Positions 1,561 through 62,110 are shown, counted from the stretch's first letter. The stretch is DNA of 64,000 nucleotides from Squalus acanthias (GCA_030390025.1 CM059426.1:99386001-99450000), one strand, 5' to 3'. The notes: a model not told the origin generated them from the letters alone. Program-made: numbers and translations.

Positions 1561-3331
1561 GCACATTCCCATATCTGATGCAATACATTCCAAATTAATA
1601 AATGAATGCATTGCTATTCCCTTAACACATCTCTTCAAATTCCTACTTATATATATCATACAAATATAAAATTATAGTTACCCATTTTATTTTGAGTTTG
1701 AATTTCAGTCACAAGAACTAAGCCAAAGGCTATAAAATCCTGAATTCTAATTCATTGAAAAAGAATAAAAAGAAAGAAATGGGATTTAAAATTATTCTTG
1801 CAGTTATATCTTAGTTCCTCTGAGAAGGCTTGGCCTTGGCACAGAGGTCATCTTTTTCCTGCCAAATCTGCCAATCAAACTTTTCTAGATCAGTCATATT
1901 AATAAATTACATTTATCCAGTGTTGGGTTTTCCAAAATCTATTGCCCTGGCTACCAAAAGGGATGGGAAGGAAGTGCTGTATGGATAAACAGATTGGTGT
2001 TCAGATTAGTACAACTGGCAATGTTAAAAGGAGGCTACTTCAATACAACCCCCACCTCTCTTTGCACCAACGATTATTTGTATAATTATATTTGTGATTT
2101 GTGTTAATTCTGGCTCTCCATTAGGCTAAATTTGTAAAGTGAAATCCTGGAAACTCTCAGGATATGCAGCAAGAATTTTTCAGTAGCAGGGCAAGGGATA
2201 ATTTGTCTGCTTCTCACACCTTAGCATTTATTTTCTATTCTCACCAGTATTCTCTGCCAATGTTCTCCCTTCCCCTCCTCTCCCCAAGTTATAGACTTCT
2301 TGCTGGATTACAGTTTCATGGGTGTCCGTCGCTCTCCAGTTTCTCACCCAAGTGACAAAACGGGTGAGTTTTGACAATTATTGTCAACAGGCAGGCTATT
2401 GGACCTCAGAGACATCTCAGCCATGCCCGATATTTTCCTCAGCCAATGTCTTCACACCCACTTCCAGGAAAGGTCACTAGATAGCAATCAGGAGGAAAAG
2501 CCTTTGCTGAGGCCTATTATAATACCTGCTCCTCAGACCAGACTGGAGATTTGAACTGGAATCTGAAGTCAGTGAAAAGGAAAATTGGGCAGGGTGTATA
2601 ACGGTCTGCTTTCTACAACTACCGAAAGTTCAAACCTACCCCACCGAGACGTACCCTTTCCTTTGTAAAATCTTGAGAATTGCAGTGCCAATAAATTAAA
2701 TGGCATTAACATCTTTACACTGTGGTGATGTCCAAATTCTGATACTACTGTCAAAATGAGGGGAAACTAAAGTCTGGATTCTCTCCATCAACATTGGTTT
2801 CTTTCCTGGGTTCTACAAGTGCTAAGGAGTGTCCAAATCTGGTTTGAGGAGTCGCTCATTCAGTGATGGTAAATGTACATCGATTTTGCAAACATTGGAG
2901 CAAAGGGTTTCAGTTATTAGGCGAGCATGTCCTGAGATCACTGCAATACTTTGGACAGTTGACATGGTAGAAAATATGATCAGAATGTTGGCCTGAAAGA
3001 TACAAAATAAAACTTCACAAGTCTCAAAAAGAATAATCCCTAGAGTATAGCCATCATAATTTTGGAAAATGGGTTGTCATAATAATCTTGCATCTATAAG
3101 ATTACGTGAAGGTTTTGAGGTGGGAATGTGGGGGGTTTGGGGGGGGGAGGCGGGGTGAGACAATCAGATTTCTGGAATGATTCCTGAAATTCCCATGCAT
3201 GCCTTCAACTGTTTCAGCTTAGAAGCTGAAGATATACTTCCATAATCAGTGCTTTGCCGATGACTGCAGTCAACAGAGAGAATGCTAAGGTAGAATGTAA
3301 TATATTTGGATTTTCAGAAGCTATTCAATAA

Positions 3332-3778
3332 GGAGTAGGCCATGCGGCCCCTCGAACCTGCTCCGCCATTCAATAAGATCATGGCTGATCTTTGACCTTA
3401 ACTCCACTTTCCTGCCCTATCCTCATATCCCTTGATTCCTCTAGAGTCCAAAAATCTATCGATCTCAGCCTTGAATATACTCAATGACTGAGCATCCACA
3501 GCCCTTTGGGGCAGAGAATTCCAAAGATTCACAACCCTCTGAGTGAAGAAATTTCTCCTCATCTCAGTCTTAAAAGGATGACCCCCTTATCTTGAGACTA
3601 AACATCCTAGTTCTAGACACTCCAGCCAGGGAAACAATCTCTCAGCATCTATCCAGTCAATCCCCCTCAGAATCTTACATGTTTCAATGAGATCACCTCT
3701 CATTCTTTTAAACTCCAGAGAGTATAGGCCCAACCTGCTCAATCTCTCCTCATAGGACAACCCTCTCATCTCAGGATC
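3332..3778 (-). mobile_element. CR1 LINE 3' fragment
   Basis: ORF 3587-4078 ends in GLSYEERLSRLGLYSLEFKRMRGDLIET (CR1 ORF2 C-terminus); 3' stem-loop present. Confidence 0.9.
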
Positions 3779-11451: not shown

Positions 11452-11630
11452 ATAGAAACATAGGAACAGGAGTCAGCCATTTAGTCCCTCGAACCTGTTC
11501 CGCTATTCAATTAGATCATGGCTGATCTGTATCTTAACTCCATCTACCCACCTTGGTTCTATAACCCTTAATACTCTTGCCTAACAAAAATCTATCAAGC
11601 TTATTTTTGAAATTTTCAATTGACCTAGCC
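11452..11630 (-). mobile_element. CR1 3' terminal fragment
   Basis: atagaaacataggaacagg tail plus 3' stem-loop. Confidence 0.85.
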
Positions 11631-12145
11631 TGTGGATGCATTGGTTGTGATCTTCCAAAACTCCCTAGATTTTAGAATGGTCCCAGCAGATTGGAAGGTA
11701 GCAAATGTAACCCAGCTATTCAAGAAAGGAAGGAGAGAGAAAACAGGGAACTACAGGCCAGTTAGCCTGACATCAGTCGTCGGGTAAATGCTGGAATCCA
11801 TTATTAAGGAAGTGGTAACGAGGCAATTAGAAAATCATAATATGATTAGGCAGAGTCGACATGGTTTTATGAAAGGAAAATCGTGTTTAACAAATGTTAG
11901 AGTTTTTTGAGGATGTAGCAGAGTAGATAAAGTGGAACCAGTGGATGTAGTATATTTGGATTTCCAAAAAACATTCGATAACGTGTCACATAAAAGTTTG
12001 CAACGCAAGATAAGGGCTCATGGGGTTGGGGGTAATATATTAGCATGGATATATTTAAGGAAGGATATACTTGCCTTTGAGGCAGTGCAACGAAGATTCA
12101 CTAGATTGATCCCTGGGATGAGAAGGTTGTCCTATGAGGAGAGAT

Positions 12146-14662
12146 AGAAACATAGAAACATAGAAAATAGGTACAGGAGTAGACCATTCGGTCCTTCGAG
12201 CCTGCACCGCCATTCAATGCGTTCATGGCTGAACATGCTACCTCAGTACCCCATTCCTGCTTTCTCGCCATACCCCTTGATCCCCTTAGTTGTGAGTGTT
12301 ATATCTAACTCCCTTTTGAATATATTTAGCGAACTGGCCTCAACAACCTTCTGTGGAAGAGAATTCCATAGATTCACCACTCTCTGGGTGAAGAAGTTCC
12401 TCCTCAGCTCAGTCCTAAATGGCTTCCCCTTAATCCTTAGACTGTGACCCCTGGTTCTAGTTTTCCCTACCATTGGGAACATTCTGCCCGCATCTAATTT
12501 GTCTAAACCAGTCAGGATTTTAAATGTCTCTATAAGATCCCCCCTCATTCTTCTGAACTCCAGAGGATACAAGTTCAGTTGACCCAATCTTTCTTGATAT
12601 GTCAGTCCGGCCATCCCAGGAATCAATCTAGTGAACCTTCGCTGCACTCCCTCAATAGCAAGAATGTCCTTCCTTAAGTTAGGAGACCAAAACTGTGCAC
12701 AATACTCCAGGTGTGGCCTCACCAAGGCCCTGTACAACTGTAGCATCACCTCCCTACTCCTGTACTCAAATCCCCTTGCTATGAAGGCCATCATTCCGTT
12801 TGCTTTCTTGACTGCCTGCTGCACTTGCATTCCCACCTTCAGTGACTGATGTACCATGACGCCCAGGTCTCGTTGCACGTCCCCTTTCCCTAATCTGCCA
12901 CCATTCAGGTAATAGTCCGCCTCTCTATTTTTACCACCAAAGTGGATAACCTCACATTTATCCACATTGTACTTCATCTGCCATACATTTGCCCATTCAC
13001 CCAACCTGTCCAAGTCACTCTGTAGCCTCCTAGCATCCTCCTCATTGTTCACACTGCCTCCCAATTTAGTGTCATCCGCAAATTTGGAGATATTACATTT
13101 AATCCCTTCGTCCAAATCATTAATATATAATGTAAACAGCTGGGGTCCCAGCACCGAACCCTGCGGTACCCCGCTGGTCACTGCCTGCCATTCTGAAAAG
13201 TACCCATTTACTCCTACTCTTTGTTTCCTGTGTGCCAACCAGTTCTCAATCCACGTCAACACATTACCCCCAATCCCATGTGCTTTAACTTTGCTCACCA
13301 ATCTCTTGTGTGGGACCTTGTCGAAGGCCTTCTGAAAGTCCAAATACACCACATCTACTGGTTCCCCCCTGTCCACCCTATTGGAAACATCCTCAAAAAA
13401 TTCCAGAAGATTTGTCAAGCATGATTTCCCTTTCACAAATCCATGCTGACTTGGACCTATCATGTCGCCACTTTCCAAATGGTCTGTTATGACATCTTTA
13501 ATAATTGCTTCCATCATTTTACCCACGACCGATGTCAGGCTGACCGGTCTATAATTCCCTGCTTTCTCCCTCCCTCCTTTTTTAAAAAGAGGGGTTACAT
13601 TGGCCACCCTCCACTCCATCGGAACTGATCCAGAGTCTAAGGAATGTTGGAAAATGATCGTCAATGCATCCACTATTTCCAAGGCCACCTCCTTAAGTAC
13701 TCTGGAATGCAGACCATCAGGCCCCGGGGATTTTTCAGCCTTCAGTCCCATCAATTTCCCCAATACCTTTTCCCGACTAATAAGGATTTCCCTCAGCTCC
13801 TGCCTCTTACCAGATCCTCTGACCCCTTTTATTTCCGGCAGGTTGTGTGTGTCCTCCACAGTAAACACCGAACCAAAGTACTTGTTCAATTGATCTGCCA
13901 TTTCCTTGTTCCCCATTACGACTTCCCCTGTTTCCGACTGCAGGGGACCTACGTTTGTTTTTACTAACCTCTTTCTTTTTACATATTTATAGAAGCTTTT
14001 GCAGTCCATTTTAATGTTCTCTGCAAGCTTCCTTTCATATTTTATTTTCCCTGCCCTAATCAAACCCTTCGTCCTCCTCTGCTGAGTTTTGAAGTTCTCC
14101 CAGTCCCCGGGTTTGCTGCTACTTCTGGCCAATTTGTATGCAACTTCCTTGGTTTTAATACTATCCCTGATTTCCCTTGTTAGCCATGGTTGAGCCACCT
14201 TCCCTTTTTTATTTTTATGCCAGACCGGGATGTACAATTGTTGTAGTTCATCCATGCGATCTCTAAATGTCTGCCATTGCCCTTCCACTGATAGCCCCTT
14301 AAATATCGCTTGCCAATTTAACCTCGCCAATTCACGCCTCATACCCTCAAAGTTGCCCTTATTTAAGTTCTGGACCATGGTCTCTGACTTAACTGTTTCC
14401 TTCTCCATCCTAATGTAGAACTCCACCATACTATGGTCACTCTTCCCCAGGGGGCCTCGTACCACAAGATTGCTGATTAGTCCCTCCTCATTACACAACA
14501 CCCAGTCCAGGATGGCCTCCCCTCGAGTTGGTTCCTCAACATATTGGTTTAGGAAACCATCCCTTAAACACTCCAGGAAATCCTCCTCCACCGTATTGCT
14601 TTCAGTTTGAGTAGCCCAATCTATATGCATATTAAAGTCACCCATGATAACTGCCGTGCCTT
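12146..14662 (-). mobile_element. Young 5'-truncated CR1 LINE
   Basis: Uninterrupted ORF2 from mid-endonuclease to stop, short 3'UTR, (TTTCTATG)n tail. Confidence 0.95.
12243..14645 (-). CDS. CR1 ORF2 (C-terminal endonuclease plus reverse transcriptase), 5'-truncated
   Basis: GDFN, SDH, KSPGPDG, NYRPVSL, GVPQGSVLGP and FADD motifs in an 800 aa ORF. Confidence 0.95.
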   Translation of the reverse strand: MGDFNMHIDWATQTESNTVEEDFLECLRDGFLNQYVEEPTRGEAILDWVLCNEEGLISNLVVRGPLGKSDHSMVEFYIRMEKETVKSETMVQNLNKGNFEGMRRELARLNWQAIFKGLSVEGQWQTFRDRMDELQQLYIPVWHKNKKGKVAQPWLTREIRDSIKTKEVAYKLARSSSKPGDWENFKTQQRRTKGLIRAGKIKYERKLAENIKMDCKSFYKYVKRKRLVKTNVGPLQSETGEVVMGNKEMADQLNKYFGSVFTVEDTHNLPEIKGVRGSGKRQELREILISREKVLGKLMGLKAEKSPGPDGLHSRVLKEVALEIVDALTIIFQHSLDSGSVPMEWRVANVTPLFKKGGREKAGNYRPVSLTSVVGKMMEAIIKDVITDHLESGDMIGPSQHGFVKGKSCLTNLLEFFEDVSNRVDRGEPVDVVYLDFQKAFDKVPHKRLVSKVKAHGIGGNVLTWIENWLAHRKQRVGVNGYFSEWQAVTSGVPQGSVLGPQLFTLYINDLDEGIKCNISKFADDTKLGGSVNNEEDARRLQSDLDRLGEWANVWQMKYNVDKCEVIHFGGKNREADYYLNGGRLGKGDVQRDLGVMVHQSLKVGMQVQQAVKKANGMMAFIARGFEYRSREVMLQLYRALVRPHLEYCAQFWSPNLRKDILAIEGVQRRFTRLIPGMAGLTYQERLGQLNLYPLEFRRMRGDLIETFKILTGLDKLDAGRMFPMVGKTRTRGHSLRIKGKPFRTELRRNFFTQRVVNLWNSLPQKVVEASSLNIFKRELDITLTTKGIKGYGEKAGMGY

Positions 14663-15086
14663 TGAGTAGATTGGGCCTATACTCTCTGGAGTTTATAAGA
14701 ATAGAGGTGATCTCATTGAAACATATAAGATTCTGAGGGGGATTGACAGGCTAAATGCTGAGAGGTTATTTTCCCTGATTGGAGAGTCTAGAAATAGGGG
14801 GCATAGTCTCAGGATAAGGGGGTGGCCATTTAAGACCGAGATGAGGAGGAATTTCTTCACTCAGAGGGTTGTGAATCTTTGGAATTCTCTGCCCCAGAGG
14901 GCTGTGGAGGTTCAGTCGTTGAGTATATTCAAGGCTGAGATAGATAGATTTTTGGACTCTAGGGGAATCAAGGGATATGGAGATTGGGCAGGAAAGTGGA
15001 GTTGAGGTTGAAGATCTTATTGAATGGTGGAGCAGACTCGAAGGGCCGTATGGCCGACTCCTGCTCCTATTTCTTATGTTCTTATG

Positions 15087-16920
15087 TGGAGGTGGAGGGC
15101 TCTTCCAACATGGAGGTCTCCCTCCCTCTGCAACCCTCCAAGAGGAAGAGACAAAAGTGTCGCTCCTTGGAAGCGGAGGAGGACCCATGTCCCTCCGTGG
15201 AAGAGGAGACGGCGCCTGGACCCCCCCACCACCACCACCCACAGTCAGCGGGAGTCGCCCATCCCTCAGGAGGATGAGACAGATCTCTCTGTCCAGTCTG
15301 TGCCTCCCGGGGGTGGGAAGGAAGCCCAAAATAAAACTGTCACTCCTTGCTGGGTTGGGCATCCTGGAGGCTGATAAGGCTAAGTTCACCCAGCCACAAC
15401 CTGACATCTCCCGGGAGTTGCTCAACCTGGTCAATGATTTTAATAGAAACCCCTGCCTGCTGGATCGGTGGGTGGCAGCAGGGAAGAGGAGCCCCCCTTC
15501 TCCGTCTCTCACTTTTGTGCCGGGTGTGTTGGAGGAACGTTGGATGATTTTTTTCCCCGGTTTCGCCTTATAGTCTGAGGCGGAGCGAGGGCTTCAACTG
15601 CTGCCGCCCTCTGACCCAAGCTCCCCAGAGGAGCCCAGGGTGGACTCCACTGCCATCGATCCTGGGGGTGGGTTTGTGACATAGGTGGGAACGGCTGGTG
15701 TGGCTGAGCCATTCACTGCACCCTGTGCGGTGCGCGAGTTGCCTGCTGGTGACGACCTCCTGGAGGAGGACGGTGACATGGTGGAGGGCATTGGGGACGA
15801 TTTGGAGTCCACTACCAGTGAGGCAGTGGAGGCCCTCGTGCCCCCTACCGAGTCTCCCCTCATCCCTTTTGAGGAGCTCCAGGAATTTCTGGTTGGTTGC
15901 CTAGGTCGTTGCAATAAAGATCCTCGACAGATGGTCAGAGCTGGCGCAGCTCATCAGGTCTGTCTGCTCCGCTGCTAAGACACTGAGCGTGGGCAAGGGC
16001 ATGAACCACTGTGAGCTGTGCCAGCTCAAGATGTTCCTCACTGGGCTGCTAAAGGAGTGGAGGGTAACACGCGACTCACATCCCTCTCCACAGTAGGTTG
16101 CACTATGCTCTTGCCATGACGATAACCATAGCCAGCCTCAACATTAACGGCAGCAGAGAGTCGCGCTGCAGATTTATTAACTTCTTGCTGCTTAAGGAAG
16201 GGGAGTATGTGGTGTGCTTCCTGCAGGAAATGCACACCGTTTCAGGAGACGAGGCTATGTGGTGCCTGGAATGGCAAAGAGAGGTCTACATGAGCCACGT
16301 CGCTACCACTTTTTGCGGTGGCTATTTTGCTGGCCCCACATTTTTGGCCAGAGATCTTAAGAGTCAAGAAGCCTGTGCCAAGTGTGTCGAGGAGGCTCAA
16401 GGGTGTGGAGTGATCCCATCCGAGACCTCCCTCGGGAGCCAGCGCCTCACAGCTTGAGCCGTCTCTCAGAGATCCCTTCCGTGCCTTTCCACTCTGCACG
16501 GAGAGATTTTGTCTACGGACTGCTCTTGCACACTCTCCAAACTGTCTTCCTTGTCTGCCATCCAGACACAGCTTGGTGTGCCATCTTGCTATCTGGAGGA
16601 GGCAGGGGTCCCTCTCTCTACGCGGGAGTCCTCCCCTTTTCTATTGGGGATTTGGCATGGAGGGTGTTGCATGGAGCAGTCCCGTGAAAATCTTTTTTAA
16701 GTAGGTTCACGGACTCCCAGGCCGCCTGCAATTTCTACGGTTTGGAGATGTCCGTGTTCTATGAATATACAGAGTGTGAGAGGTTGTAGCCCCTCTTCCA
16801 ATTTTTGAAGGGGCTGCTCCTCAATTTTTGGTCGCACTTCAGTCCCTGATCCTTGGGCACCCGATGTCCCTGGAGATGGAGCATGCGGTGTCCACTAGTA
16901 AGCTTGAGGCCTTCCGCGAC
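15087..16920 (+). mobile_element. Internally deleted Tx1/L1-clade LINE relic
   Basis: MTITIASLNINGSR...CFLQE (APE N-terminus, about 16116) and GDLAWRVLHGAVP plus a degenerate Cys motif (ORF2 C-terminus); RT core absent. Confidence 0.7.
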
Positions 16921-18159: not shown

Positions 18160-19400
18160 TCCCTTATCTTCCACGTTAGTTACTTCCACAAAAAATTCAA
18201 CTGGGTTTGTTAGACATGACTTACCGTTTACAAATCTCTCTGATCAATTCATATTTGTCCAAGTGCTCAGTCACTCTGCCTCTAATAACAGATTGCAGTA
18301 ACTTCCCCACAACTGACATTAGACTAATAGGCCTATAATTTCCATGGTTAGCTCTCTTACCCTTCTTAAATAGTGGAGTGACATTGGCAATGTTCCAATC
18401 TAAGGGGACAATTCCTGAATCAAGAGAGTTTTGGAAGATCATGTCTAATATATCAACAATTTCCTCACCTACTTCTTTTAATACCCTGAGGTAGAAACCA
18501 TTAGGTCCTGAAGATTTCTCTATCTTTAATCTCATCAGTTTCTCCATCACCTTTTTTTTTTACTTATGTTGAATCTAGTTGGTTCCTCCCCTTGATTTAC
18601 TTTTAGTTTTCCTTGTATCTCTGGTACTTTATCCTCATCCTCTACTGTGAAGATTGATACAAAGTAACTATTTAGTAAGTCTGCCATTTCCTGATTTCCA
18701 ATTACAATATCACCTGTGTCTGTCATTAAGAGGCCCACATTACTCTTAGCCACTCTCTTTCTCTTGTACATGTAAAAACCTTTAGTGTTGTCCTTGATGT
18801 GCTTTACAAGCTTTTAGTTGTATTCCCTTTTTGCATTTCTTACCACTTTCTTTGTATCCCCTCACTGTTCTTTATATCTCTCCCAGTCCGCGGGATCTCT
18901 GATGTTTATTGCCTTTGTATAAGCCCTTTTTGTTCGATACTATCTCTCACTTCCCTTGTTGACCAAGGTTGTTTAATTACACGAGTAGAGCTCTTGACCT
19001 TTAGGGGTATGTACAGGCTTTGTATTCTACCAGATACTTTTTTTCTCCTCCCATTGTTCATCTGTAGTTTCATCATTATTGTGGTTAATTCCTGCCTGAC
19101 ACCGCCAAAGTCAGACTTATCTAAATTTAAAACCTTGGATTGTGTCTCACCCTTCTCCCTCTCAAACCTAATATCAAATTCTATCATATTATGGTCCCTG
19201 TTAGCTAGGTGTTCCCTTACTGTTAGATTTTTGACTAATTCGGGCTCATTACTCATTATTAAATCTAAGATGGCCCATTCTCTTGTTGGTTCAAGAATAT
19301 AGCATTCCAGAAAACTAGAGGTCTATAAACAACTCCCACCAAAGTCTTGCATCCTTTTCTATTCCTCAATTCTACCCATAGCGTTTCTACTGCCTGCTTA
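18160..19400 (-). mobile_element. Degenerate CR1 ORF2 fragment
   Basis: Frameshifted pieces DHNMIEF, KRVAKSNVG, NVTPLFKKG...NYRPISL. Confidence 0.9.
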
Positions 19401-23920: not shown

Positions 23921-25439
23921 AAAAATACCTATGGCTTTGGTAGGGGATAGATAACTTGCCCTAAAGTACTCACTGGTTTAATACTAAATTGTCCATTGAG
24001 ACACATGACACAGCAGCTTGATAATGATTTTCCCTCCGTCCAGTGGGAAAGCACCTGGTCTATGCTGGGCAGCTATGATTAGGGCCTTAACCTTGTAGGG
24101 TGTCCACAGGTGTAGCAGAGACCCAGGTCTTGTAACTCCATGGAGCCATCCAAGGGTGCATAAGGGAGCTGCACAACTGTGCCATCAAACTGTTTTAAAT
24201 TAAAGCCAATGGGGGTGAAATCGATAATGCAGAAAAACAGGTGAGGGCACTGCAATGCGCGATATGCCCACACCCATTGAAAGGAGCTCAGACAGCAGGT
24301 CACATTCATGCAGCCTGCTAATTATAATGATTGTAGCGCACAGCCCAGCGCTGAACGCATTGCTGACAGGCTGTGTGCTCAGCATGGGGCCGAAGTTCTC
24401 AATGTTCGCACAAGGCTAGCTTTACTTAAAGTTAGCCTGCGCATCTTAAAGGCAGTCTGCACCTCTTAAAGGTGAGCGGCCTTCTGCAGATGAAAACTTT
24501 GAAAAATGCTTCAGCACTACCACAAATTGCTCAACAGGCCAGGGAAAGGGCACCCAGGGTCTCGGACACAGCACTCAAGGCCTTTTTGCAGGTGATGAAT
24601 ACTGGAAGAGAGGTTGTCTACCCACAGGAAGCCCTCCAGAAAGAAGGATGTGGGACCAGATTACCGAGGCGGTCACAGCAGTGTTGCCCCCACCACCTGG
24701 CTCCAGTGCCCAAAGAAGCTTCATGACCTCAGACCACTGGTCAAGGTCAGTGAATGTATCTTCAAGAGTCATTTCCTACCAACTGCAACACTAGCCTCAC
24801 ACACTGGTCAATGCACGAACTCCCCACCCCCATCACTCACCTACCAACAATCGCTACCAAACACGAGGCACACCTCACATTCCTAGTTTCACCTCACCCC
24901 CTTGGAGAAGACAGTGCTGGCCATTCTCAGCAGGGGCAGGCTGAGCCCTTGGCCAGTGGCAGGGCTGAAAGAATACAAGATGCTGGTATCCTCATAGGTT
25001 ATCCTGCTTCTCACATCCCACTTCCCCCTTGTAATGTATTATCACATAACCACCCAAAACTCCACTACAACCCTGGTCATGGCCAAGTAAACCTTTTCAG
25101 AGAGTACATGTAGACTTCTGTGAGAAAGCAAATGATTATTTCCTGGTACTTGTAGATAGTCACTCAAAGTGGATTGAAGTGAAACACATGGGTTCAAATA
25201 CTACAACTGAACGTACCATAGATGAGTTAAGGTCCATCTTTGCATGTCATGGCTTACCTGAAGAGGTCATTTCTGACAATGGCCTACAGTTCCATTCTGC
25301 TCTATTCCAAGAATTCATGAAATGGAACGGTATCAAATACACTATCATTCCACCATATCATCCAGCTTTAAATGGAGCAGCCGATAGGTCAGTCAGAATA
25401 GTGAAAGAAGCTCTCAAAAAGCAAATGTTGCAGGACTGT

Positions 25440-27998
25440 TAGGGATGGGTTTCTTGAGCAGTATGTAACTGAACCGACCAGGGGGCAAGCAACCTTAGAT
25501 CTGGTCCTGTGTAACGAGACAGGATTAATTAAAAATGTCCTAGTAAAGGATCCCCTTGGAATGAGTGACCATAACATGGTTGAATTCCATATTCAATTAG
25601 AGGGTGAGAAGGTTGGATCTCAAACAAGCGTGCTAAGCTTGAATAAAGGAGACTATGAAGGTATGCGAGCGGAATTGAGTAGAGTGGATTGGGAAAATAG
25701 ATTAAAGGGTAAGACGACACATGATCAGTGGTGTACATTCAAGGAGTTATTTTACAACTTCCAAAAAAAATATATTCCACTGAAAAGAAAAGGGTGTAAA
25801 AGAAAGGACAGTCAACCGTGGCTAAGTAAAGAAATTAAGGATAGTATTCGACTAAAAACAAGGGCATATAAGGTAGCGAAATCTAGTGGGAGGACAGAGG
25901 ATTGGGAAAACTTTAAAAGGCAGCAAAAAATAACAAAAAGATTGATTAAGAAAGGGAAGATAGATTATGAAAGTAAATTAGCAAAAAATATAAAAACAGA
26001 TAGTAAGAGTTTTTATAGTTATATAAAAAGAAAAAGGGTGGCTAAAGTAAATGTTGGTCCCTTAGAGGATGAGACCGGGAAATTAATGGTGGGAAATATG
26101 GAGATGGCAAAAACACTGAATGAATATTTTGTATCAGTCTTTACAGTAGAGGACACTAAGAATATCCCAACACTGGACAAACAGGGGGCTATAGGGGGAG
26201 AGGAGCTAAACACGATCAAAATCACTAAGGAAGTGGTACTCGGTAAAATAATGGGACTCAAGGCGGATAAATCACCTGGACCTGATGGCTTACATCCTAG
26301 AGTCTTGAAGGAAGTGGCGGTAGGGATTGTAGATGCATTGGTAATAATTTTTCAAAACTCCCTGGATTCCGCTAAGGTCCCGGCAGACTGGAAAACTGCT
26401 AATGTAACACCCTTATTTAAAAAGGGCAGTAGACAGAAGGCTGGTAACTATAGACCGGTTAGCCTAACATCTGTGGTAGGTAAAATTTTGGAGTCCATTA
26501 TTAAGGAAACAGTAACAGGACATTTGGATAATCATAATTTAATAGGACAAAGTCAGCATGGTTTTACGAAGGGGAAGTCATGTTTGACAAATTTGCTGGA
26601 GTTCTTTGAGGAAGTAACATATAGAGTGGATAAGGGGGAACCAGTGGACGTAGTGTATTTAGACTTCCAAAAGGCATTTGACAAGGTGCCACACAAAAGA
26701 TTATTGCTTAAGGTAAAAAATCACGGGATTGGGGGTAATATTCTGGCATGGATAGAGGAGTGGCTATCTAACAGAAAGCAAAGAGTTGGGATAAATGGTT
26801 CATTCTCAGACTGGCAATCAGTAACTAGTGGTGTTCCACAGGGGTCAGTGCTGGGTCCCCAACTCTTCACAATCTATATTAACGATTTGGAGGAAGGGAC
26901 CAAGTGTAACATATCAAAATTTGCAGATGATACAAAGATGGGAGGGAAAGTAGTGAGTGAGGAGGACATAAAAAACCTGCAAGGGGACATAGACAGGCTA
27001 AGTAAGTGGGCAGAGATTTGGCAGATGGAATACAACACTGGAAAGTGTGAGGTGATGCACTTTGGCAGGAAAAATCCTAGAGCAATTTATTATCTTAATG
27101 GCAAGAAACTGGAGAGTACTGAAGTGCAAAGGGATCTGGGGGTCCTGGTGCACGAAACTCAAAAGGTTAGTATGCAGGTGCAGCAAGTGATTAAGAAGGC
27201 AAATGGAATGTTGGCTTTCATTGCTAGGGGGATAGAATATAAAAATAGGGAGGTATTGCTTCAGTTGTACAAGGTATTGGTGAGACCGCACCTGGAATAC
27301 TGCATACAGTTTTGGTGTCCTTACTTAAGGAAAGACATCCTTGCTCTCGAAGCAGTGCAAAAAAGGTTCACTCGGTTAATCCCGGGGATGAGGGGGTGGT
27401 CATATGAGGAGAGGTTGGGTAGATTGGGACTCTACTCATTGGAGTTCAGAAGAATGAGAGGCGATCTTATTGAAACATATAAGATTGTGAAGGGGTTGGA
27501 TCGGGTGGATGCGGGGAGGATGTTCCCGATGACGGGTGAGACGAGAACTAGGGGACATAGTCTTAGAATAAGGGGCTGCTCTTTCAAAACTGAGATGAGG
27601 AGGAACTACTTCACTCAGAGGGTGGTAGGTCCATGGAATATGCTGCCACAAAAAGCTGTAGAAGCTACAACATTAATTAAATTTAAAACAGAAATAGACA
27701 GTTTCCTAGAAGTAAAGGGCATTAAGGGTTACGGGGAGCGGGCAGGAATTTGGACATGAGTCTAGGTTCGGATCGGTCATGGCCCTGTGGGTAGTGGAGC
27801 GGGCCCAGGGACTGTGTAGCCTGATTCTGCTCCTATTTCGTGTGTGCAATTCTGTTAGATGCAGGAGATGGTTCTGTGATAGATAGTAGATTGGCGGTTA
27901 GGATCAGATCAGCCATGATCTTATTGAATGGCGGAGCAGGCTCGAGGGGCCGATTGGCCTACTCCTGCTCCTATTTCTTATGTTCTTATGTTCTTATG
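25440..27998 (+). mobile_element. Young 5'-truncated CR1 LINE, same subfamily as 57482-62110
   Basis: Open ORF2 remnant, extended 3'UTR, (TTCTTATG)3 tail. Confidence 0.95.
25561..27759 (+). CDS. CR1 ORF2 reverse transcriptase, 5'-truncated
   Basis: 732 aa ORF with KSPGPDG, YLDFQKAFD, GVPQGSVLGP, FADD. Confidence 0.95.
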   Translation: MSDHNMVEFHIQLEGEKVGSQTSVLSLNKGDYEGMRAELSRVDWENRLKGKTTHDQWCTFKELFYNFQKKYIPLKRKGCKRKDSQPWLSKEIKDSIRLKTRAYKVAKSSGRTEDWENFKRQQKITKRLIKKGKIDYESKLAKNIKTDSKSFYSYIKRKRVAKVNVGPLEDETGKLMVGNMEMAKTLNEYFVSVFTVEDTKNIPTLDKQGAIGGEELNTIKITKEVVLGKIMGLKADKSPGPDGLHPRVLKEVAVGIVDALVIIFQNSLDSAKVPADWKTANVTPLFKKGSRQKAGNYRPVSLTSVVGKILESIIKETVTGHLDNHNLIGQSQHGFTKGKSCLTNLLEFFEEVTYRVDKGEPVDVVYLDFQKAFDKVPHKRLLLKVKNHGIGGNILAWIEEWLSNRKQRVGINGSFSDWQSVTSGVPQGSVLGPQLFTIYINDLEEGTKCNISKFADDTKMGGKVVSEEDIKNLQGDIDRLSKWAEIWQMEYNTGKCEVMHFGRKNPRAIYYLNGKKLESTEVQRDLGVLVHETQKVSMQVQQVIKKANGMLAFIARGIEYKNREVLLQLYKVLVRPHLEYCIQFWCPYLRKDILALEAVQKRFTRLIPGMRGWSYEERLGRLGLYSLEFRRMRGDLIETYKIVKGLDRVDAGRMFPMTGETRTRGHSLRIRGCSFKTEMRRNYFTQRVVGPWNMLPQKAVEATTLIKFKTEIDSFLEVKGIKGYGERAGIWT

Positions 27999-28047
27999 AC
28001 TCAGCATGAAGCAACATTTGGCAAATTTCTTGCTGAAGTACAGAACT

Positions 28048-34797: not shown

Positions 34798-35376
34798 AAT
34801 GTGATTTCCTATTTTATTTGAGCCAGAGAAAGCACGATACTTGATATTTCTCTGCTACAGATATACTTAATAGTGTATATTTTATGAATGATGATGCAGC
34901 TTTAAAATCCTCTTCCTTGTCTTGTTCCACTCAACCTCCACAATCTCCTGCAACCCTATATTCTTCATCACTGAACTCCCTGCTCTCTGACTCTGGTCTT
35001 TTGCACATCTTTCCCTTCCTCCCTTTGCATTTACAGTAGCAGAGGGATGCTCAACTGCCTGGGTCCTAATCACTGGGATTTCCTCTCTAAATCCTTTCAT
35101 CTCATCACCTCTCTCTATTCTCCTTTAAAAACCTCCTCAAAACCCATCTCTTTGATCAAGCCTTTGATCAGCCCTCCTAAACTCTTTTTTGGGTCGGCAT
35201 CCATTTTCCGTACTCTAATCTATGAATTGCCTTGGAAACTTTTTCACGTCAAAGACGCTATATAAATGGAAGTTATTCCTGTTGTTGAATTTGCAGAGCT
35301 GCCCCTTGAACTAAAAGCATATCCTAAATTTTCCCTCACCATTAATGGGAATTTGCTGGTCTAATGCATGGCATTA

Positions 35377-35729
35377 GAACACAGAACATAGAAAAATAGG
35401 AGCAGGAGCAGGAGTAGAGCCTGCTCCGCCATTCAATATGATCATGGCTGATCCTCTATCTCAATACCATATTCCCGCTATCTCCCCATACCCCTTGATG
35501 CCTTTTGTGTCTAGAAATTTATCTATCTCCTTCTTAAATATATTCAGTGACTTGGCCTCCACAGCCTTCTGTGGTAGAGAATTCCACAGGTTCACCACCC
35601 TCTGAGTGAAGAAATTTCTCCTCATCTCAGTCCTAAATGTCCTACCCCATATCCTGAGACTGTGACCCCTCGTTCTAGACCCCCCAGCCAGGGGAAACAT
35701 CCTCCCTGCATCCAGTCTGTCTAGCCCTG
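35377..35729 (-). mobile_element. CR1 3' fragment
   Basis: MFPLAGGSRTRGHSLRI...GIKGYGE and tail. Confidence 0.9.
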
Positions 35730-54088: not shown

Positions 54089-56018
54089 TTATCTTTCTCT
54101 TACGTGTGCTTCTACGTGGTGCTTCCCCTGTGACTTCAGCAGATGTAGAGGCACCTTGCTGACTTTGATGCTGCGCCTGCTTAGACACCTTTGGCGGGCA
54201 TCATCTGGGTTTGGGAGCCTGGGAGGGCTCTGCAACAGTCTGCTTTTCCTGCGGCTTGCAGGGGCTGAAACGGCCATCTCAGTTAGGTGTGCAATGTGGG
54301 TCTCTGAGCGAGGGCTCCGCAGTGACATGGTCGTGTGAGCGCTTGCAGAGGAGCCCACACTTCCTTGTTGCCTGCCACCAACATCCCACTCATGGGTCAG
54401 CCACACTTCAGGGCTAGCAAGTGGCTGGAGAGCACCTTGCTGCACATCAGGGGGGCCATGAGGACCCGTATCTGTACTGGCAGTCCTCATAACAAGGATG
54501 TCCATGAAGCTCTGGCGTCTCTCCTCAATAGATGCCCATCTCTCCTCCATAGCTCTATTGCAGACAATCTATTTTGAAGAGTCACCATGTTTTCGTGAGT
54601 CCGGCGACTTATGTCCTCCATTGCGGTTGCCACCCTCTCCATGGCAGAACGTTCATGCGCCATTACCTCCACAAAGGCAGTGCTCATGTTAGAGATGGAC
54701 TCCTCCATTCTCTGCACACTCGCAGTTACCCTGGATGCAAACTCTGTCAGAGACTCCTGCACTTGTTCCTGGGGTTCCTGGATGGCCCCAGAGGCACAGC
54801 GTCTGCATGCAGTTGAGCAGAGCTAGGAGAGTCCTGCGACCTCCGAAGAGGACTTTCCACTGCTTTCGCTGTCTCCACCATCTGCAGATGCTCACTTGTG
54901 AGCTGTGATACACCAGGTGACAACACTACTCTATGTCGCGAAGGCCCCGCTGAGGTGTGCGTTTCTGCGCTGGTGCTGGGTACGCTGAGTAATGCTGACG
55001 CTGCTCCCTCAGAGGCTGCAGTTTCCTCTGAGGAGTCATCCGGCTCTTCCTCCTGGACAGTGGAGAGGGCGGCTCTCAATGGTCCTGTGGGAGAGTAAAG
55101 GATTGAGTTAGACATTTGATTTTGAGGTAGCAGACACATCCTTTTGTGCAGATCATACAAAGCGAATCTCTATGAACATCATATGCCATTGCAGTCAATC
55201 ATTAAATTTAAATGAGAGGGATGAAACTGTATTCTGTCACCAGCTTCATCTAGTGCTCCCGTCTCTCCATCCCCCACTTCCAGCTCCTCGCCACCTCCAA
55301 CAATTTTGTGCGCAGCCTCCTCAGCACTTGTCAATGTCGCGAGGGATTGTGGGCCTCCTCCTGTCTGTGCTCTCCCTCTTATTGTGGGCTATCTTTTCCT
55401 TCAAGGAGCAACACAAGTGGAGTTTCAGCGAGATTGATGGAGTGACTGTGAAGAATCCATAACATAGAAGCTTAGAGGGAGACCAAGATGGAGTGAGGTG
55501 CCAAGAGGAAGCTAGCTCCCTGTGCGTTGTTAGTTGTTGTCAATGCATAACAGTGAGAGCGAGTCTGAGGGGTGCATAGGCAGGATGGTGAGGTGATTCA
55601 ATACAGAGAGAGAGATGGATAGGTGAGGGTGCAAGGGAAGTAAGGGTAAGGTGGGATGTGGAGGAGCAGGCTTACAAAGCAGAGTGTTGGTGATGAGAAG
55701 AGAAGGGAAGCAGATTGAAGGTAAGTGTGATGGGATACTCACTTTTGATGATCGCAGAAGATCATTAAAGCGTTTCCTGCGTTGGATCCAAGTGTGTGAA
55801 CAAACGGACCTTGCGCTGACCTCCTCAGCAATGTGCAGCCAGGCTGCCTTGGTTTGCTGAGGAGGCTTCCTCCGGCCATCGGGACGAAACAGAATCTCCC
55901 TGCGCCCTCTTACTCCCTCCACAAGAGCTTGGAGGGAGTTCTCATTGAAGTGTGGAGCTGCCTTCGATTTCGATGCACTTATTGTGGCCTTGCTACATTC
56001 ACACACCAGCAGAATCAA
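54089..56018 (-). pseudogene. Harbinger Myb/SANT (trihelix) DNA-binding protein, 3 exons
   Basis: Exon 1 APHFNENSLQALV...AWLHIAEEV...WIQRRKRFNDL ends 55743 (GTGAGT); exon 2 55398-55241 (EKIAHN); exon 3 from 55084 (cccacag acceptor); start codon uncertain; lesions present. Confidence 0.85.
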
Positions 56019-56256
56019 GAAATGAAAGGCTGAGGCTGCATGGGGCCTTTAAAAACATCTGCACTAATGACATCATCAGAGGCGACTAACAGACCCAATC
56101 CCAGTCATTGGACCGGCTAGCGCGCACCACTGCACTTAAGGGGCCAATTAAATTAAAATTTCAACTGGGGAGCGGATGCAGCCGGCAGCGGGTCCGGACC
56201 CCGCCCACCAGGCAACCCGACTCTAACCCGCCTCCTCAATTAAAATCACAGCCACA

Positions 56257-57256: not shown

Positions 57257-57723
57257 GCTTGTTGCGTTTGCTTGCCTCACATTTGAAAGTAAGTTGCCAA
57301 AGGCTGGAGATGGAGTGATAGGGTTCACTGAAGCAGTTCAGCTATCATTAAAATGTAGTTCAAGGACTAAAGAAACAAAATAGCAAGATCCGTACGTTTA
57401 CCATCTTATTACTGGTTAGTGACTGAAATTCTATGGGCCCAAAAACCTGTGGGTCTTTGATTCCATTGTAACTGCTGGGATCATAAGAACATAAGAACAT
57501 AAGAAATAGGAGCAGGAGTAGGCCAATCGGCCCCTCGAGCCTGCTCCGCCATTCAATAAGATCATGGCTGATCTGATCCTAACCGCCAATCTACTATCTA
57601 CTATCACAGAACCATCTCCTGCATCTAACAGAATTGCACACACGAAATAGGAGCAGAATCAGCCTACACGGTCCCTGGGCCCGCTCCACTACCCACAGGG
57701 CCATGACCGATCCGAACCTAGAC

Positions 57724-60675
57724 TCATGTCCAAATTCCTGCCCGCTCCCCGTAACCCTTAATGCCCTTTACTTCTAGGAAACTGTCTATTTCTGTTTTAA
57801 ATTTATTTAATGATGTAGCTTCTACAGCTTTTTGTGGCAGCATATTCCATGGACCTACCACCCTCTGAGTGAAGTAGTTCCTCCTCATCTCAGTTTTGAA
57901 AGAGCAGCCCCTTATTCTAAGACTATGTCCCCTAGTTCTAGTCTCACCCGTCATCGGGAACATCCTCCCCGCATCCACCCGATCCAACCCCTTCACAATC
58001 TTATATGTTTCAATAAGATCGCCTCTCATTCTTCTGAACTCCAATGAGTAGAGTCCCAATCTACACAACCTCTCCTCATATGACCACCCCCTCATCCCCG
58101 GGATTAACCGAGTGAACCTTTTTTGCACTGCCTCGAGAGCAAGGATGTCTTTCCTTAAGTAAGGACACCAAAACTGTATGCAGTATTCCAGGTGCGGTCT
58201 CACCAATACCTTGTACAACTGAAGCAATACCTCCCTATTTTTATATTCTATCCCCCTAGCAATGAAAGCCAACATTCCATTTGCCTTCTTAATCACTTGC
58301 TGCACCTGCATACTAACCTTTTGAGTTTCGTGCACCAGGACCCCCAGATCCCTTTGCACTTCAGTACTCTCCAGTTTCTTGCCATTAAGATAATAAATTG
58401 CTCTAGGATTTTTCCTGCCAAAGTGCATCACCTCACACTTTCCAGTGTTGTATTCCATCTGCCAAATCTCTGCCCACTTACTTAGCCTGTCTATGTCCCC
58501 TTGCAGGTTTTTTATGTCCTCCTCACTCACTACTTTCCCTCCCATCTTTGTATCATCTGCAAATTTTGATATGTTACACTTGGTCCCTTCCTCCAAATCG
58601 TTAATATAGATTGTAAAGAGTTGGGGACCCAGCACTGATCCCTGTGGAACACCACTAGTTACTGATTGCCAGTCTGAGAATGAACCATTTATCCCAACTC
58701 TTTGCTTTCTGTTAGATAGCCAATCCTCTATCCATGCCAGAATATTACCCCCAATCCCGTGATTTTTTACCTTAAGCAATAATCTTTTGTGTGGCACCTT
58801 GTCAAATGCCTTTTGGAAGTCTAAATACACTACGTCTACTGGTTCCCCTTTATCCACTCTATATGTTACTTCCTCAAAGAACTCCAGCAAATTTGTCAAA
58901 CATGACTTCCCCTTCGTAAAACCATGCTGACTTTGTCCTATTAAATTATGATTATCCAAATGTCCTGTTACTGTTTCCTTAATAATGGACTCCAAAATTT
59001 TACCTACCACAGATGTTAGGCTAACCGGTCTATAGTTACCAGCCTTCTGTCTACTGCCCTTTTTAAATAAGGGTGTTACATTAGCAGTTTTCCAGTCTGC
59101 CGGGACCTTAGCGGAATCCAGGGAGTTTTGAAAAATTATTACCAATGCATCTACAATCCCTACCGCCACTTCCTTCAAGACTCTAGGATGTAAGCCATCA
59201 GGTCCAGGTGATTTATCCGCCTTGAGTCCCATTATTTTACCGAGTACCACTTCCTTAGTGATTTTGATCGTGTTTAGCTCCTCTCCCCCTATAGCCCCCT
59301 ATTTGTCCAGTGTTGGGATATTCTTAGTGTCCTCTACTGTAAAGACTGATACAAAATATTCATTCAGTGTTTTTGCCATCTCCATATTTCCCACCATTAA
59401 TTTCCCGGTCTCATCCTCTAAGGGACCAACATTTACTTTAGCCACCCTTTTTCTTTTTATTTAACTATAAAAACTCTTACTATCTGTTTTTATATTTTTT
59501 GCTAATTTACTTTCATAATCTATCTTCCCTTTCTTAATCAATCTTTTTGTTATTTTTTGCTGCCTTTTAAAGTTTTCCCAATCCTCTGTCCTCCCACTAG
59601 ATTTTGCTACCTTATATGCCCTTGTTTTTAGTCGAATACTATCCTTAATTTCTTTACTTAGCCACGGATGACTGTCCTTTCTTTTACACCCTTTTCTTTT
59701 CAGTGGAATATATATTTTTTGGAAGTTGTAAAATAACTCCTTGAATGTACACCACTGATCATGTGTCGTCTTACCCTTTAATCTATTTTCCCAATCCACT
59801 CTACTCAATTCTGCTCGCATACCTTCATAGTCTCCTTTATTCAAGCTTAGCACGCTTGTTTGAGATCCAACCTTCTCACCCTCTAATTGAATATGGAATT
59901 CAACCATGTTATGGTCACTCATTCCAAGGGGATCCTTTACTAGGACATTTTTAATTAATCCTGTCTCGTTACACAGGACCAGATCTAAGGTTGCTTGCCC
60001 CCTGGTCGGTTCAGTTACATACTGCTCAAGAAACCCATCCCTAATACACTCAATGAACTCATCCTCAAGGCAGCCCTGCCCCATTTGATTTGTCCAATTA
60101 ATATGATAGTTAAAATCCCCCATAATTATAGATGTTCCCTTATTACATGCCTCAACTATTTCCTGATTGATACTCCGTCCAACAGAGTTGCAACTGTTCG
60201 GAGGCCTATAGACTACGCCCACTAGTGTTTTTTCCCCCTTATTATTCCTTATCTCCACCCAAACTGTTTCATTATCATGATTTTTTGACCCAATATCATT
60301 ACTCTGTATTACAGTGATTCCTTCCTTTATTAACATCGCCACCCCACCTCCCCTTCCTTCCTGCCTGTCCTTCCTGATCGTTAAATAACCTGGTATGTTT
60401 AATTCCCAGGCATTGTCACCCTGCAGCCATGTTTCTGTAATGGCCACAATATCATAACCATATGTAGTTATTTGTGCCATTAACTCGTCTATTTTGTTAC
60501 AAATGCTACGTGCATTCAGATAGAGAACTTTCAAATATGCTTTGTGGCACTTAGTTCCTGCTTTTTCACTTTTTACCACTTTACCTTTTACTCCACACAC
60601 TCTGTCCCTTCCTGCCACGCTCTGATTTGTGATTCCCCTACTGCTACCTATGTCTATGACCCTCTCTGTTGTCAT
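57724..60675 (-). pseudogene. CR1 ORF2 APE endonuclease-reverse transcriptase with one nonsense codon
   Basis: YLNARS, ITETW, GDFN, SDH, FADD; TAA at 59461-59463 where the sister copy has TAT. Confidence 0.95.
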
Positions 60676-60713
60676 TTTTATTTTTTGCTCTCTTGAAACC
60701 TCCCCCCCACTAA

Positions 60714-61669
60714 TTAGTTTAAAGCCCTCTCCACAGCCCTAGTTATTCGATTCGCCAGGACACTAGTCCCAGCACTGGCCAAGTGAAGTCCGTCCCAACG
60801 GAACAGCTCTCTCCTGCCCCAGTACTGGTGCCAGTGTCCCAAGAAGCAAAACCCATTTTTCCCACACCAGTCTTTGAGCCACGCATTCAACTCCCTGATT
60901 TTATTTACCCTAGCCAAATTTGCTCGTGGCTCAGGTAGTAATCCAGAGATTATTACCCTCGAGGTTCTGCTTTTTAATTTGGCCCCTAGCTGCTCAAACT
61001 CCCTCAGCAGAACCTCTTTCCTTGTCCTATCTATGTCATTGGTACCAACATGGACCACGACAACTGGATCCTCCCCCTCCCACTCCAAGTTTCTCTCCAG
61101 CCCAGAGGAGATGTCCTTAACCCTGGCACCGGGCAGGCAACACAGCCTTCGGGACTCTCGCTCTTGGCTGCAAAGAACCCTATCTATCCCCCTAATGATA
61201 CTATCCCCTACCACTACAACATTTCTTTTTACTCCCCCCACTTGAATGGCCCCCCTTACCACGGTGCTGTGGCCAGGTTGCTCATCCTCCCTGCAGTCCC
61301 CGCTCCTATCCACACAGGGAGTAAGAGCCTCGAACCTGTTGGACAAGAGCAAGGGCTGCGGCTCCTCCAACACTACCTCCTGGATCCCTGTACCTGCCTC
61401 ACTCGTAGTCACACCTTCCTGTCCCTGACCACGGGCTACTTCTGAATTAGTTACTCTAATTGGTGTGACTACCTCCTGAAACACGGAGTCCAGGTAACTC
61501 TCCCCCTCCCTGATGTGTCGCAGTGTTTGAAGCTCGGACTCCAGCTCATCAACACAGAGCCGGAGTTCCTCGAGCAGCCAACACTTACTGCAAATGTGTT
61601 CACCGTGAACATCAATGGTGTCCACCAGCTCCCACATTTGCAGCAGTAACACATCACCTGCTCTCCCAT
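60714..61669 (-). pseudogene. CR1 ORF1: zinc finger/coiled coil plus SGNH esterase, 1-nt frameshift at about 61638
   Basis: MGEQVMCYCC then, after the shift, MWELV...CSKC...LEEL; GDS, VHVGTND and DGLH esterase blocks. Confidence 0.92.
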
Positions 61670-61884: not shown

Positions 61885-62110
61885 GCCTACCTGGTCGCTG
61901 CCGCCTTTTACCGCCGCCGCCTCGCCGCTGTTGCTCCACCCAGGTCCGCCGCCTCTGTGGGCCTACCTGGTCGCTGCCGCCTTTTACCGCCGCCGCCTCG
62001 CCGCTGTTGCTCCACCCAGGTCCGCCGCCTCTGTGGGCCTACCTGGTCGCTGCCGCCTTTTACCGCCGCCGCCTCGCCGCTGTTGCTCCACCCAGGTCCG
62101 CCGCCTCTGT
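61885..62110 (-). repeat. Three 76-bp GC-rich tandem monomers at the CR1 5' end
   Basis: Units start at 61885, 61961 and 62037; they appear identical, with the last 2 bp short. Confidence 0.95.

Follow-up and report, generated by a model that had tools for sequence, protein, structure and literature searches.

Introduction

At viral −1 ribosomal frameshift sites, a downstream pseudoknot or stem-loop acts as the stimulator. Pseudoknots are mentioned for viral −1 frameshifting in PMC5009743, a source that also places U_UUA_AAC among the most shift-prone heptamers on mammalian ribosomes (this and the other papers are cited throughout for the portions covered here). For LINEs, several routes to ORF2 have been put forward: +1 frameshifting or reinitiation has been suggested for Paramecium LINEs, a −1 frameshift is stated to be required for ORF2 translation in the APE-type elements TRE5-A and TRE3-A of Dictyostelium (review legend, PMC5911963), and ORF2 translation is described as unclear outside L1 and SART1 (PMC3708506).

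In most vertebrates, the dominant retrotransposons belong to the CR1 group (PMC13343379). In the literature that we searched, we found no description of CR1 frameshifting; older CR1 papers and Repbase/Dfam notes, which lay outside that search, may mention an overlap. Within the portions covered, the term “frameshift” is absent from PMC13343379, PMC3905857, PMC3708506, and PMC2881922, the term “CR1” is absent from the first 300,000 characters of PMC5009743, and CR1 frameshifting is not described in PMC5405496, PMC5911963, PMC5006619, PMC4255032, PMC11835228, or PMC4700185. Frameshifting in the −1 direction has therefore been asserted for a LINE before, i.e., for TRE5-A/TRE3-A, and was not found described for CR1. 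Here, we analyze the ORF1–ORF2 junction of a CR1 element from Squalus acanthias and its relatives. Judging from sequence comparisons, this junction is very probably a programmed −1 ribosomal frameshifting site of CR1 LINEs, from which an ORF1–ORF2 fusion protein would be expected.

A dead CR1 copy with an esterase-type ORF1

The window, i.e., the whole 64,000-nt stretch of DNA that was analyzed, carries on its minus strand a 4.9-kb LINE with an SGNH-esterase ORF1 and an endonuclease–reverse transcriptase (RT) ORF2 (Pfam). ORF1 (60714..61669, minus strand) combines a Cys-rich N-terminus with the SGNH esterase domain (PF13472, E=3.8e-10), and matches the ZfL2-1 ORF1 esterase 4C1B in a profile comparison (E=2e-50). 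On the same strand, the endonuclease part of ORF2 (59464..60738; PF03372, E=6.9e-14) is open up to an in-frame stop at 59463-59461, and the RT part (57724..59298; PF00078, E=2.6e-31) lies in the same frame past a second in-frame stop. With ORF2 interrupted by these two stops and ORF1 broken by a one-base deletion near 61637, as seen against sister copies, the window copy is dead and neither full protein is possible.

Canonical CR1 elements end in short tandem repeats, and the 3′ end of this one (57482..57570, minus strand) consists of (TTCTTATG)n repeats without poly(A). The APE endonuclease and RT of its ORF2 are likewise as in canonical CR1. An esterase-type ORF1, found here through the PF13472 and 4C1B matches, is a canonical CR1 feature as well, and poly(A) is confined to Zenon (PMC13343379). 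Placement in CR1 rather than L2 is indirect: among protein homologues, the best named ORF1 relatives of the window element come from rays, sharks, and chimaera, and cartilaginous-fish L2 elements are reported to be without ORF1 (PMC13343379), which together favor CR1. An L2-type outgroup was sought in the same genome, where only further CR1 copies were returned, and a scan of viral contigs yielded no relative.

Beyond its coding regions, the element has a 5′ UTR with three tandem copies of a 76-base GC-rich unit (61885-62110, minus strand), while its 3′ UTR (57482-57720, minus strand) apparently contains two successive terminal hairpin-like sequences, a diverged one and then one ending in the (TTCTTATG)n repeats. 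A second copy of the same family, 5′-truncated, 99.1% identical, and without the junction, lies at 25439-28006 (plus strand), and older CR1 fragments are scattered at about 11460-15090, 3331-3770, 18179-18765, and 35372-35714. The window also includes an open frame at 55530-56048 (minus strand), whose translation we take to resemble the Myb/SANT-like DNA-binding protein of Harbinger transposons.

A slippery heptamer directly before the ORF1 stop

ORF1 ends on the minus strand with GCT TTA AAC TAA, i.e., with last codons of the form x-Leu-Asn, and re-reading the sequence confirmed the starting point of the preliminary description: the heptamer U_UUA_AAC (TTTAAAC, 60723-60717) stands in X_XXY_YYZ phase and adjoins the TAA stop (60716-60714). 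TTTAAAC is present once in the whole element. At the junction ORF2 is the −1 frame, which had been described as stop-free and is indeed open from 60738 through FKLISGGEVSREQKIKM into the endonuclease domain. This frame starts five codons before the heptamer, with no AUG in those codons, and forms a stop-free spacer of 69 codons between the heptamer and the NARS motif of the endonuclease (60517..60723). The element does have an ORF2 AUG of its own, as also stated earlier, at 60675-60673; this in-frame AUG belongs to the window family and is not conserved across lineages.

In-phase X_XXY_YYZ words occur at 2 of 304 codon positions of ORF1 and 6 of 981 of ORF2 in the window copy. Since 8 of 1285 codon positions hold such words, a heptamer in a single copy is weak evidence and a comparative test is needed; the excess over chance comes from the comparison of lineages, not from the window copy alone.

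Conservation of the heptamer across copies and lineages

We collected copies from the same genome with seven protein queries lacking the last residues, plus the window's own, and obtained 215 loci, 214 of which could be anchored. TTTAAAC was found at the ORF1 end in 162 of 189 and 21 of 25 of these copies, with one-base variants in four old singleton copies (L180, L181, L200, and L228). Such within-family counts were rejected as evidence of selection, because a retention of 162/189 equals neutral decay (expected 0.85). The informative point is that TTTAAAC is the majority state in every multi-copy cluster.

A metagenome scan for other hosts returned 58 loci. Seventeen of them are CR1-type and reach the ORF1 end, including 15 with TTTAAAC, one with a decayed variant, and one without a junction; another 15 are other esterases without the heptamer, and 26 end earlier or are not anchorable. 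The CR1 loci from metagenomes were labeled presumptively, as “bird-like” or “fish-like”, from sequence resemblance. Seven esterase relatives (L127, L135, L138, L139, L142, L143, and L147) carry a Pro-rich C-terminal extension and no heptamer, and are possibly outgroup elements with another ORF junction.

To compare lineages, we took one natural copy per lineage among those holding the heptamer, from the same genome and from other hosts. All 24 representatives, selected as heptamer-bearing, read NNT TTA AAC stop. Across 22 such heptamer-bearing representatives, the wobble base before Leu was T in 22/22 over six codons (GCT, GGT, ACT, TGT, TCT, and CAT), and Leu and Asn were TTA and AAC in 22/22 each; the stop after the heptamer varied (TAA 11, TAG 10, TGA 1). 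Twenty codons upstream, the conserved Leu of DGLHL used six codons, with TTA in 1 of 21, and shared residues with four- and six-fold codon choice had the same codon in only 15–41% of cases between five host/lineage groups. Neighboring synonymous sites are thus largely scrambled while the heptamer is fixed, so the constraint acts on nucleotides. Synonymous conservation of TTTAAAC had been proposed as a check, and between lineages no variation was seen across the heptamer. From codon usage, the three junction choices together have a probability of 0.0044 per lineage, or ~4e-10 for four further groups if independent, although shared ancestry of the lineages makes this figure only a guide.

For an out-of-sample test, we searched genome contigs with P0046, a ~30%-identical ORF1 ending Y-L-N that is the most distant L-N protein. 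This search found nine loci in two sequence groups, evidently eukaryotic LINE DNA. All nine read TAT or TTT followed by TTA AAC TAG, with the heptamer in phase; GGGGG stands at +11..+15 after the heptamer in eight (see below), and seven have a Met-free −1 frame that stays open up to the CLNARS motif of the endonuclease. CR1-like LINE DNA (L334-L342) was noticed inside contigs of three bacterial metagenome-assembled genomes, where it is likely host contamination of the assemblies.

The same ending is seen at the protein level. The preliminary description had tentatively put forward that ORF1s of other vertebrate CR1 elements also end in LN-stop, and 30 of 57 homologous ORF1 proteins do have a C-terminal L-N, with L-N-Y in one more; the remaining 26 appear to be distant esterases, or gene models that are truncated or chimeric. 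The L-N set comprises proteins of named cartilaginous fish and one named bony fish (P0018), with identities down to ~30%. Ten different residues precede the terminal Leu among these proteins, and in 29 of 30 this residue is one for which a T-ending codon exists, the exception being a Glu (P0016). In the profile comparison, alignment to the crystallised ZfL2-1 esterase stops before the L-N positions, so the esterase fold appears not to need them.

Phase, spacer, and start codon of ORF2

The set of 24 representatives consists of the 22 and two of the distant loci. In 15 of the 24, the −1 frame is stop-free to the NARS motif through spacers of 35–89 codons, while decay or truncation hides the phase in the other nine. 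In 20 of the 24, this frame closes 1–6 codons ahead of the heptamer, and no upstream Met occurs in it in any of them. Of the checks proposed in the preliminary description, that on the −1 phase and stop-free spacer came out with a fixed phase across spacers of very different length, and that on the ORF2 AUG came out with no conservation: six of the 15 open spacers lack a Met ahead of the endonuclease, and in the nine that contain one, window family included, its position ranges from codon 4 to codon 57. In one natural copy (L328) with an intact ORF1 and a 975-codon −1 frame, the first Met is at codon 179, inside the endonuclease. Families differ in this respect, the spacer being open in 27 of 30 young sister copies of the window family, with an AUG in 27/27, whereas the AUG is absent from 10/10 and 5/8 open spacers of two other families.

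These data allow frameshifting to be weighed against its main rival, in which ORF2 is translated through termination-reinitiation at an AUG or else at a non-AUG codon, the heptamer, stop, and G-rich motif holding or recruiting the ribosome. Reviews present reinitiation as the model for L1 and SART1 (PMC2881922, PMC3708506). It would fit the AUG found throughout the window family (27 of 27 open spacers), the absence of a structural stimulator (see below), and an AUG 1–4 nt after the stop in L092, L093, L094, L110, L119, and L226; in L092-L094 the Met lies 4 nt after the stop, which suits reinitiation. Yet the SART1-type arrangement, with an AUG overlapping or next to the ORF1 stop, is not general here, an AUG within 4 nt being found in only 6 of 22 representatives. 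Reinitiation also provides no reason for an exact X_XXY_YYZ word in the phase of ORF1, gives no account of an ORF2 that is always −1, open back to the heptamer over 35–89 codons, and closed slightly upstream, and sits poorly with an AUG that moves from codon 4 to 57 or is missing altogether. Furthermore, 21 of 22 representatives have CTA as the −1 codon that overlaps the stop, and CTA is not a usual alternative start. A missing AUG is not decisive for frameshifting on its own, since PMC5009743 describes AUG-independent initiation of L1 ORF2. Overall, we consider reinitiation an unlikely explanation of the junction, and frameshifting the better one.

Individual copies can depart from the −1 phase. 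A G run that precedes the heptamer in one family often changes length, which has put 25 of 64 copies out of phase, 14 in one direction and 11 in the other. In-frame ORF1–ORF2 fused copies exist in the same genome (L274-L278, L280, and L294-L300), produced by a small deletion or by one extra base in the G run, and one of them, L274, is a single open frame of 1290 codons. The idea that fused copies form an active sub-lineage was rejected, as their diagnostic variants are common with unfused copies and fall into at least two sub-lineages (this relies on variant lists, the tree being distorted by flanking DNA). They are likely recurrent homopolymer slips or assembly errors and form no clade, and these natural fusions say nothing for or against frameshifting. 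In contigs of four runs guessed to be RNA, we found no shared joint across the junction; as contigs cannot show absence, this result carries no weight.

Some spacers also have a composite appearance. In L037, an ORF1 end and junction from one family lead into a spacer resembling that of the window family, so 5′ and 3′ modules may have been exchanged inside the spacer. The ORF2 spacers of L036, L037, L038, and L040 contain insertions that start with a similar G4-then-AAATT end, and that we presume to be a small DNA transposon.

A G5 element at a fixed distance from the heptamer

Counting from the heptamer, positions +11..+15 read exactly GGGGG in 19 of 23 representatives, and at least four of these five positions are G in 23/23. 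At other offsets from −3 to +5, GGGGG occurs in five or fewer representatives each, and its background is 29 of 12098 positions (0.0024 per position). In the window copy, this candidate frameshift stimulator (60702..60706, minus strand) sits inside a run of seven G's (60708-60702); the run had been mentioned before, and five of its G's turn out to be part of a conserved signal at a fixed distance. G5 spans three −1-frame codons with G at both edges, and the encoded residues vary (Q/K/R/L/G before, E/D/V/G after). Being kept while the residues of its three codons vary, it looks like a nucleotide signal.

This observation, together with codon choice at the heptamer, bears on an explanation by protein constraint, in which the ORF1 protein requires L-N, the ORF2 linker requires Gly, and inheritance or codon bias accounts for the nucleotide pattern. 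An invariant Gly (G7 of the −1 frame) in an alignment of seven spacers is consistent with such constraint, as is the status of GGG as the commonest Gly codon here (0.52). However, constraint on the proteins leaves TTA (0.06 of Leu codons), AAC (0.38), and the wobble T (0.19) unfixed, amid nearby synonymous sites that are scrambled, and it does not cover a G5 that extends over three codons with varying residues and has G at both edges. This explanation is largely refuted already, and we regard it as very improbable.

The preliminary description had seen no clear downstream pseudoknot, and this was borne out: a search of the following 90 nt for nested structures detected neither a stem-loop nor a pseudoknot that is conserved. 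Of 21 representatives, 19 had |z| < 2, and the significant folds of the other two differ from each other. Viral sites canonically carry a 3′ structural stimulator 5–9 nt downstream; here, the G5 motif stands there instead. Among 13 elements, we found no recurrent position for a long-range partner of the G-rich segment. A G-quadruplex was considered as a general stimulator and rejected, as only 8 of 21 representatives are predicted to form one and none is predicted for the window copy.

A G-run motif that is short and unstructured might be a splicing-factor site, and the junction could then represent an RNA- or DNA-level signal for another purpose (splicing or processing, packaging, transcriptional slippage), with ORF2 made from processed RNA. 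Against this, the stop triplet provides an AG acceptor in only 10 of 22 representatives, T3A3 falls short of the 9 consecutive A or T cited for transcriptional slippage in bacteria (PMC5009743), and splicing and slippage both leave the phase unexplained. A signal of this kind therefore strikes us as a most unlikely account of the junction.

A proposed mechanism of ORF2 expression

Several hallmarks of a −1 frameshift site coincide at the CR1 junction, i.e., a heptamer in the phase of the upstream ORF, a downstream ORF in the −1 frame that is open from the heptamer (15/24 representatives), and synonymous conservation of the heptamer across divergent lineages. Along with the non-conserved AUG, these comparisons lend support to the fusion protein that had been suggested for this LINE, and they point to a real, deeply conserved recoding-type signal.

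Under the frameshifting model, most ribosomes would release ORF1p upon reaching the stop. The minority that slip back by one base, from UUA (P site) and AAC (A site) to UUU/AAA, would continue at CUA/CUG (Leu) and produce …x-L-N-L-linker-EN-RT. The predicted outcome is an ORF1-linker-EN-RT fusion at a low ratio to ORF1p. In AUG-bearing families some free ORF2p may arise too, and reinitiation may contribute or act in parallel.

Whether the adjacent stop and G5 act as the stimulator in place of a pseudoknot is, in our estimation, evenly balanced. If so, G5 would most plausibly be a protein-bound sequence motif just outside the mRNA entry channel of the ribosome: its fixed distance and lack of structure suggest a protein-bound stimulator, as in arterivirus PCBP-dependent frameshifting. 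Extending this further, we tentatively propose, with doubt slightly outweighing confidence, that the canonical CR1 clade, from sharks to birds and probably invertebrates, makes its RT as a Gag-Pol-like ORF1–ORF2 fusion by −1 frameshifting, and that the structure-free signal (U_UUA_AAC, the adjacent stop, and GGGGG at +11..+15) represents a new stimulator type that a protein of the host or of the element recognizes and that has persisted for hundreds of millions of years.

With a conserved frameshift cassette of about 22 nt, the question is testable with one reporter. If frameshifting takes place, the real CR1 ORF2 protein would be a fusion that places a coiled coil and a lipid-binding esterase on the RT, annotations that start CR1 ORF2 at a downstream AUG would need correction, and a possible new kind of frameshift stimulator would be added to those described.

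Comparison with known systems

Overall, the mechanism is a known one, CR1 is a clade for which we found no description of it, and the candidate stimulator is unusual. Arteriviruses carry a C-rich motif about 10 nt after the shift site, a spacing that would match the 10 nt between heptamer and G5 in CR1. Their nsp2TF arises by protein-stimulated frameshifting, in trans by nsp1beta and PCBP (PMC5009743). It differs from the CR1 junction in its −2/−1 shift, in its site, and in a motif that is C-rich rather than G-rich, and for CR1 a binding protein is only hypothetical. Among LINEs, TRE5-A and TRE3-A belong to another clade and have another ORF1. L1 and SART1 resemble CR1 in having a bicistronic RNA with ORF2 downstream of ORF1 (PMC2881922, PMC3708506), yet their reinitiation or UAAUG coupling yields free ORF2p, whereas the CR1 junction is predicted to yield a fusion. 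The closest likeness is to the −1 sites of coronaviruses (IBV) and retroviruses, which share the same heptamer (named in PMC5009743), an X_XXY_YYZ word at the end of the upstream ORF, and a polymerase ORF in the −1 frame. Those sites use a downstream pseudoknot or stem-loop, while the CR1 junction, which has no conserved fold, is set apart by an immediate stop, a G5 at a fixed distance, and its location in a non-LTR retrotransposon.
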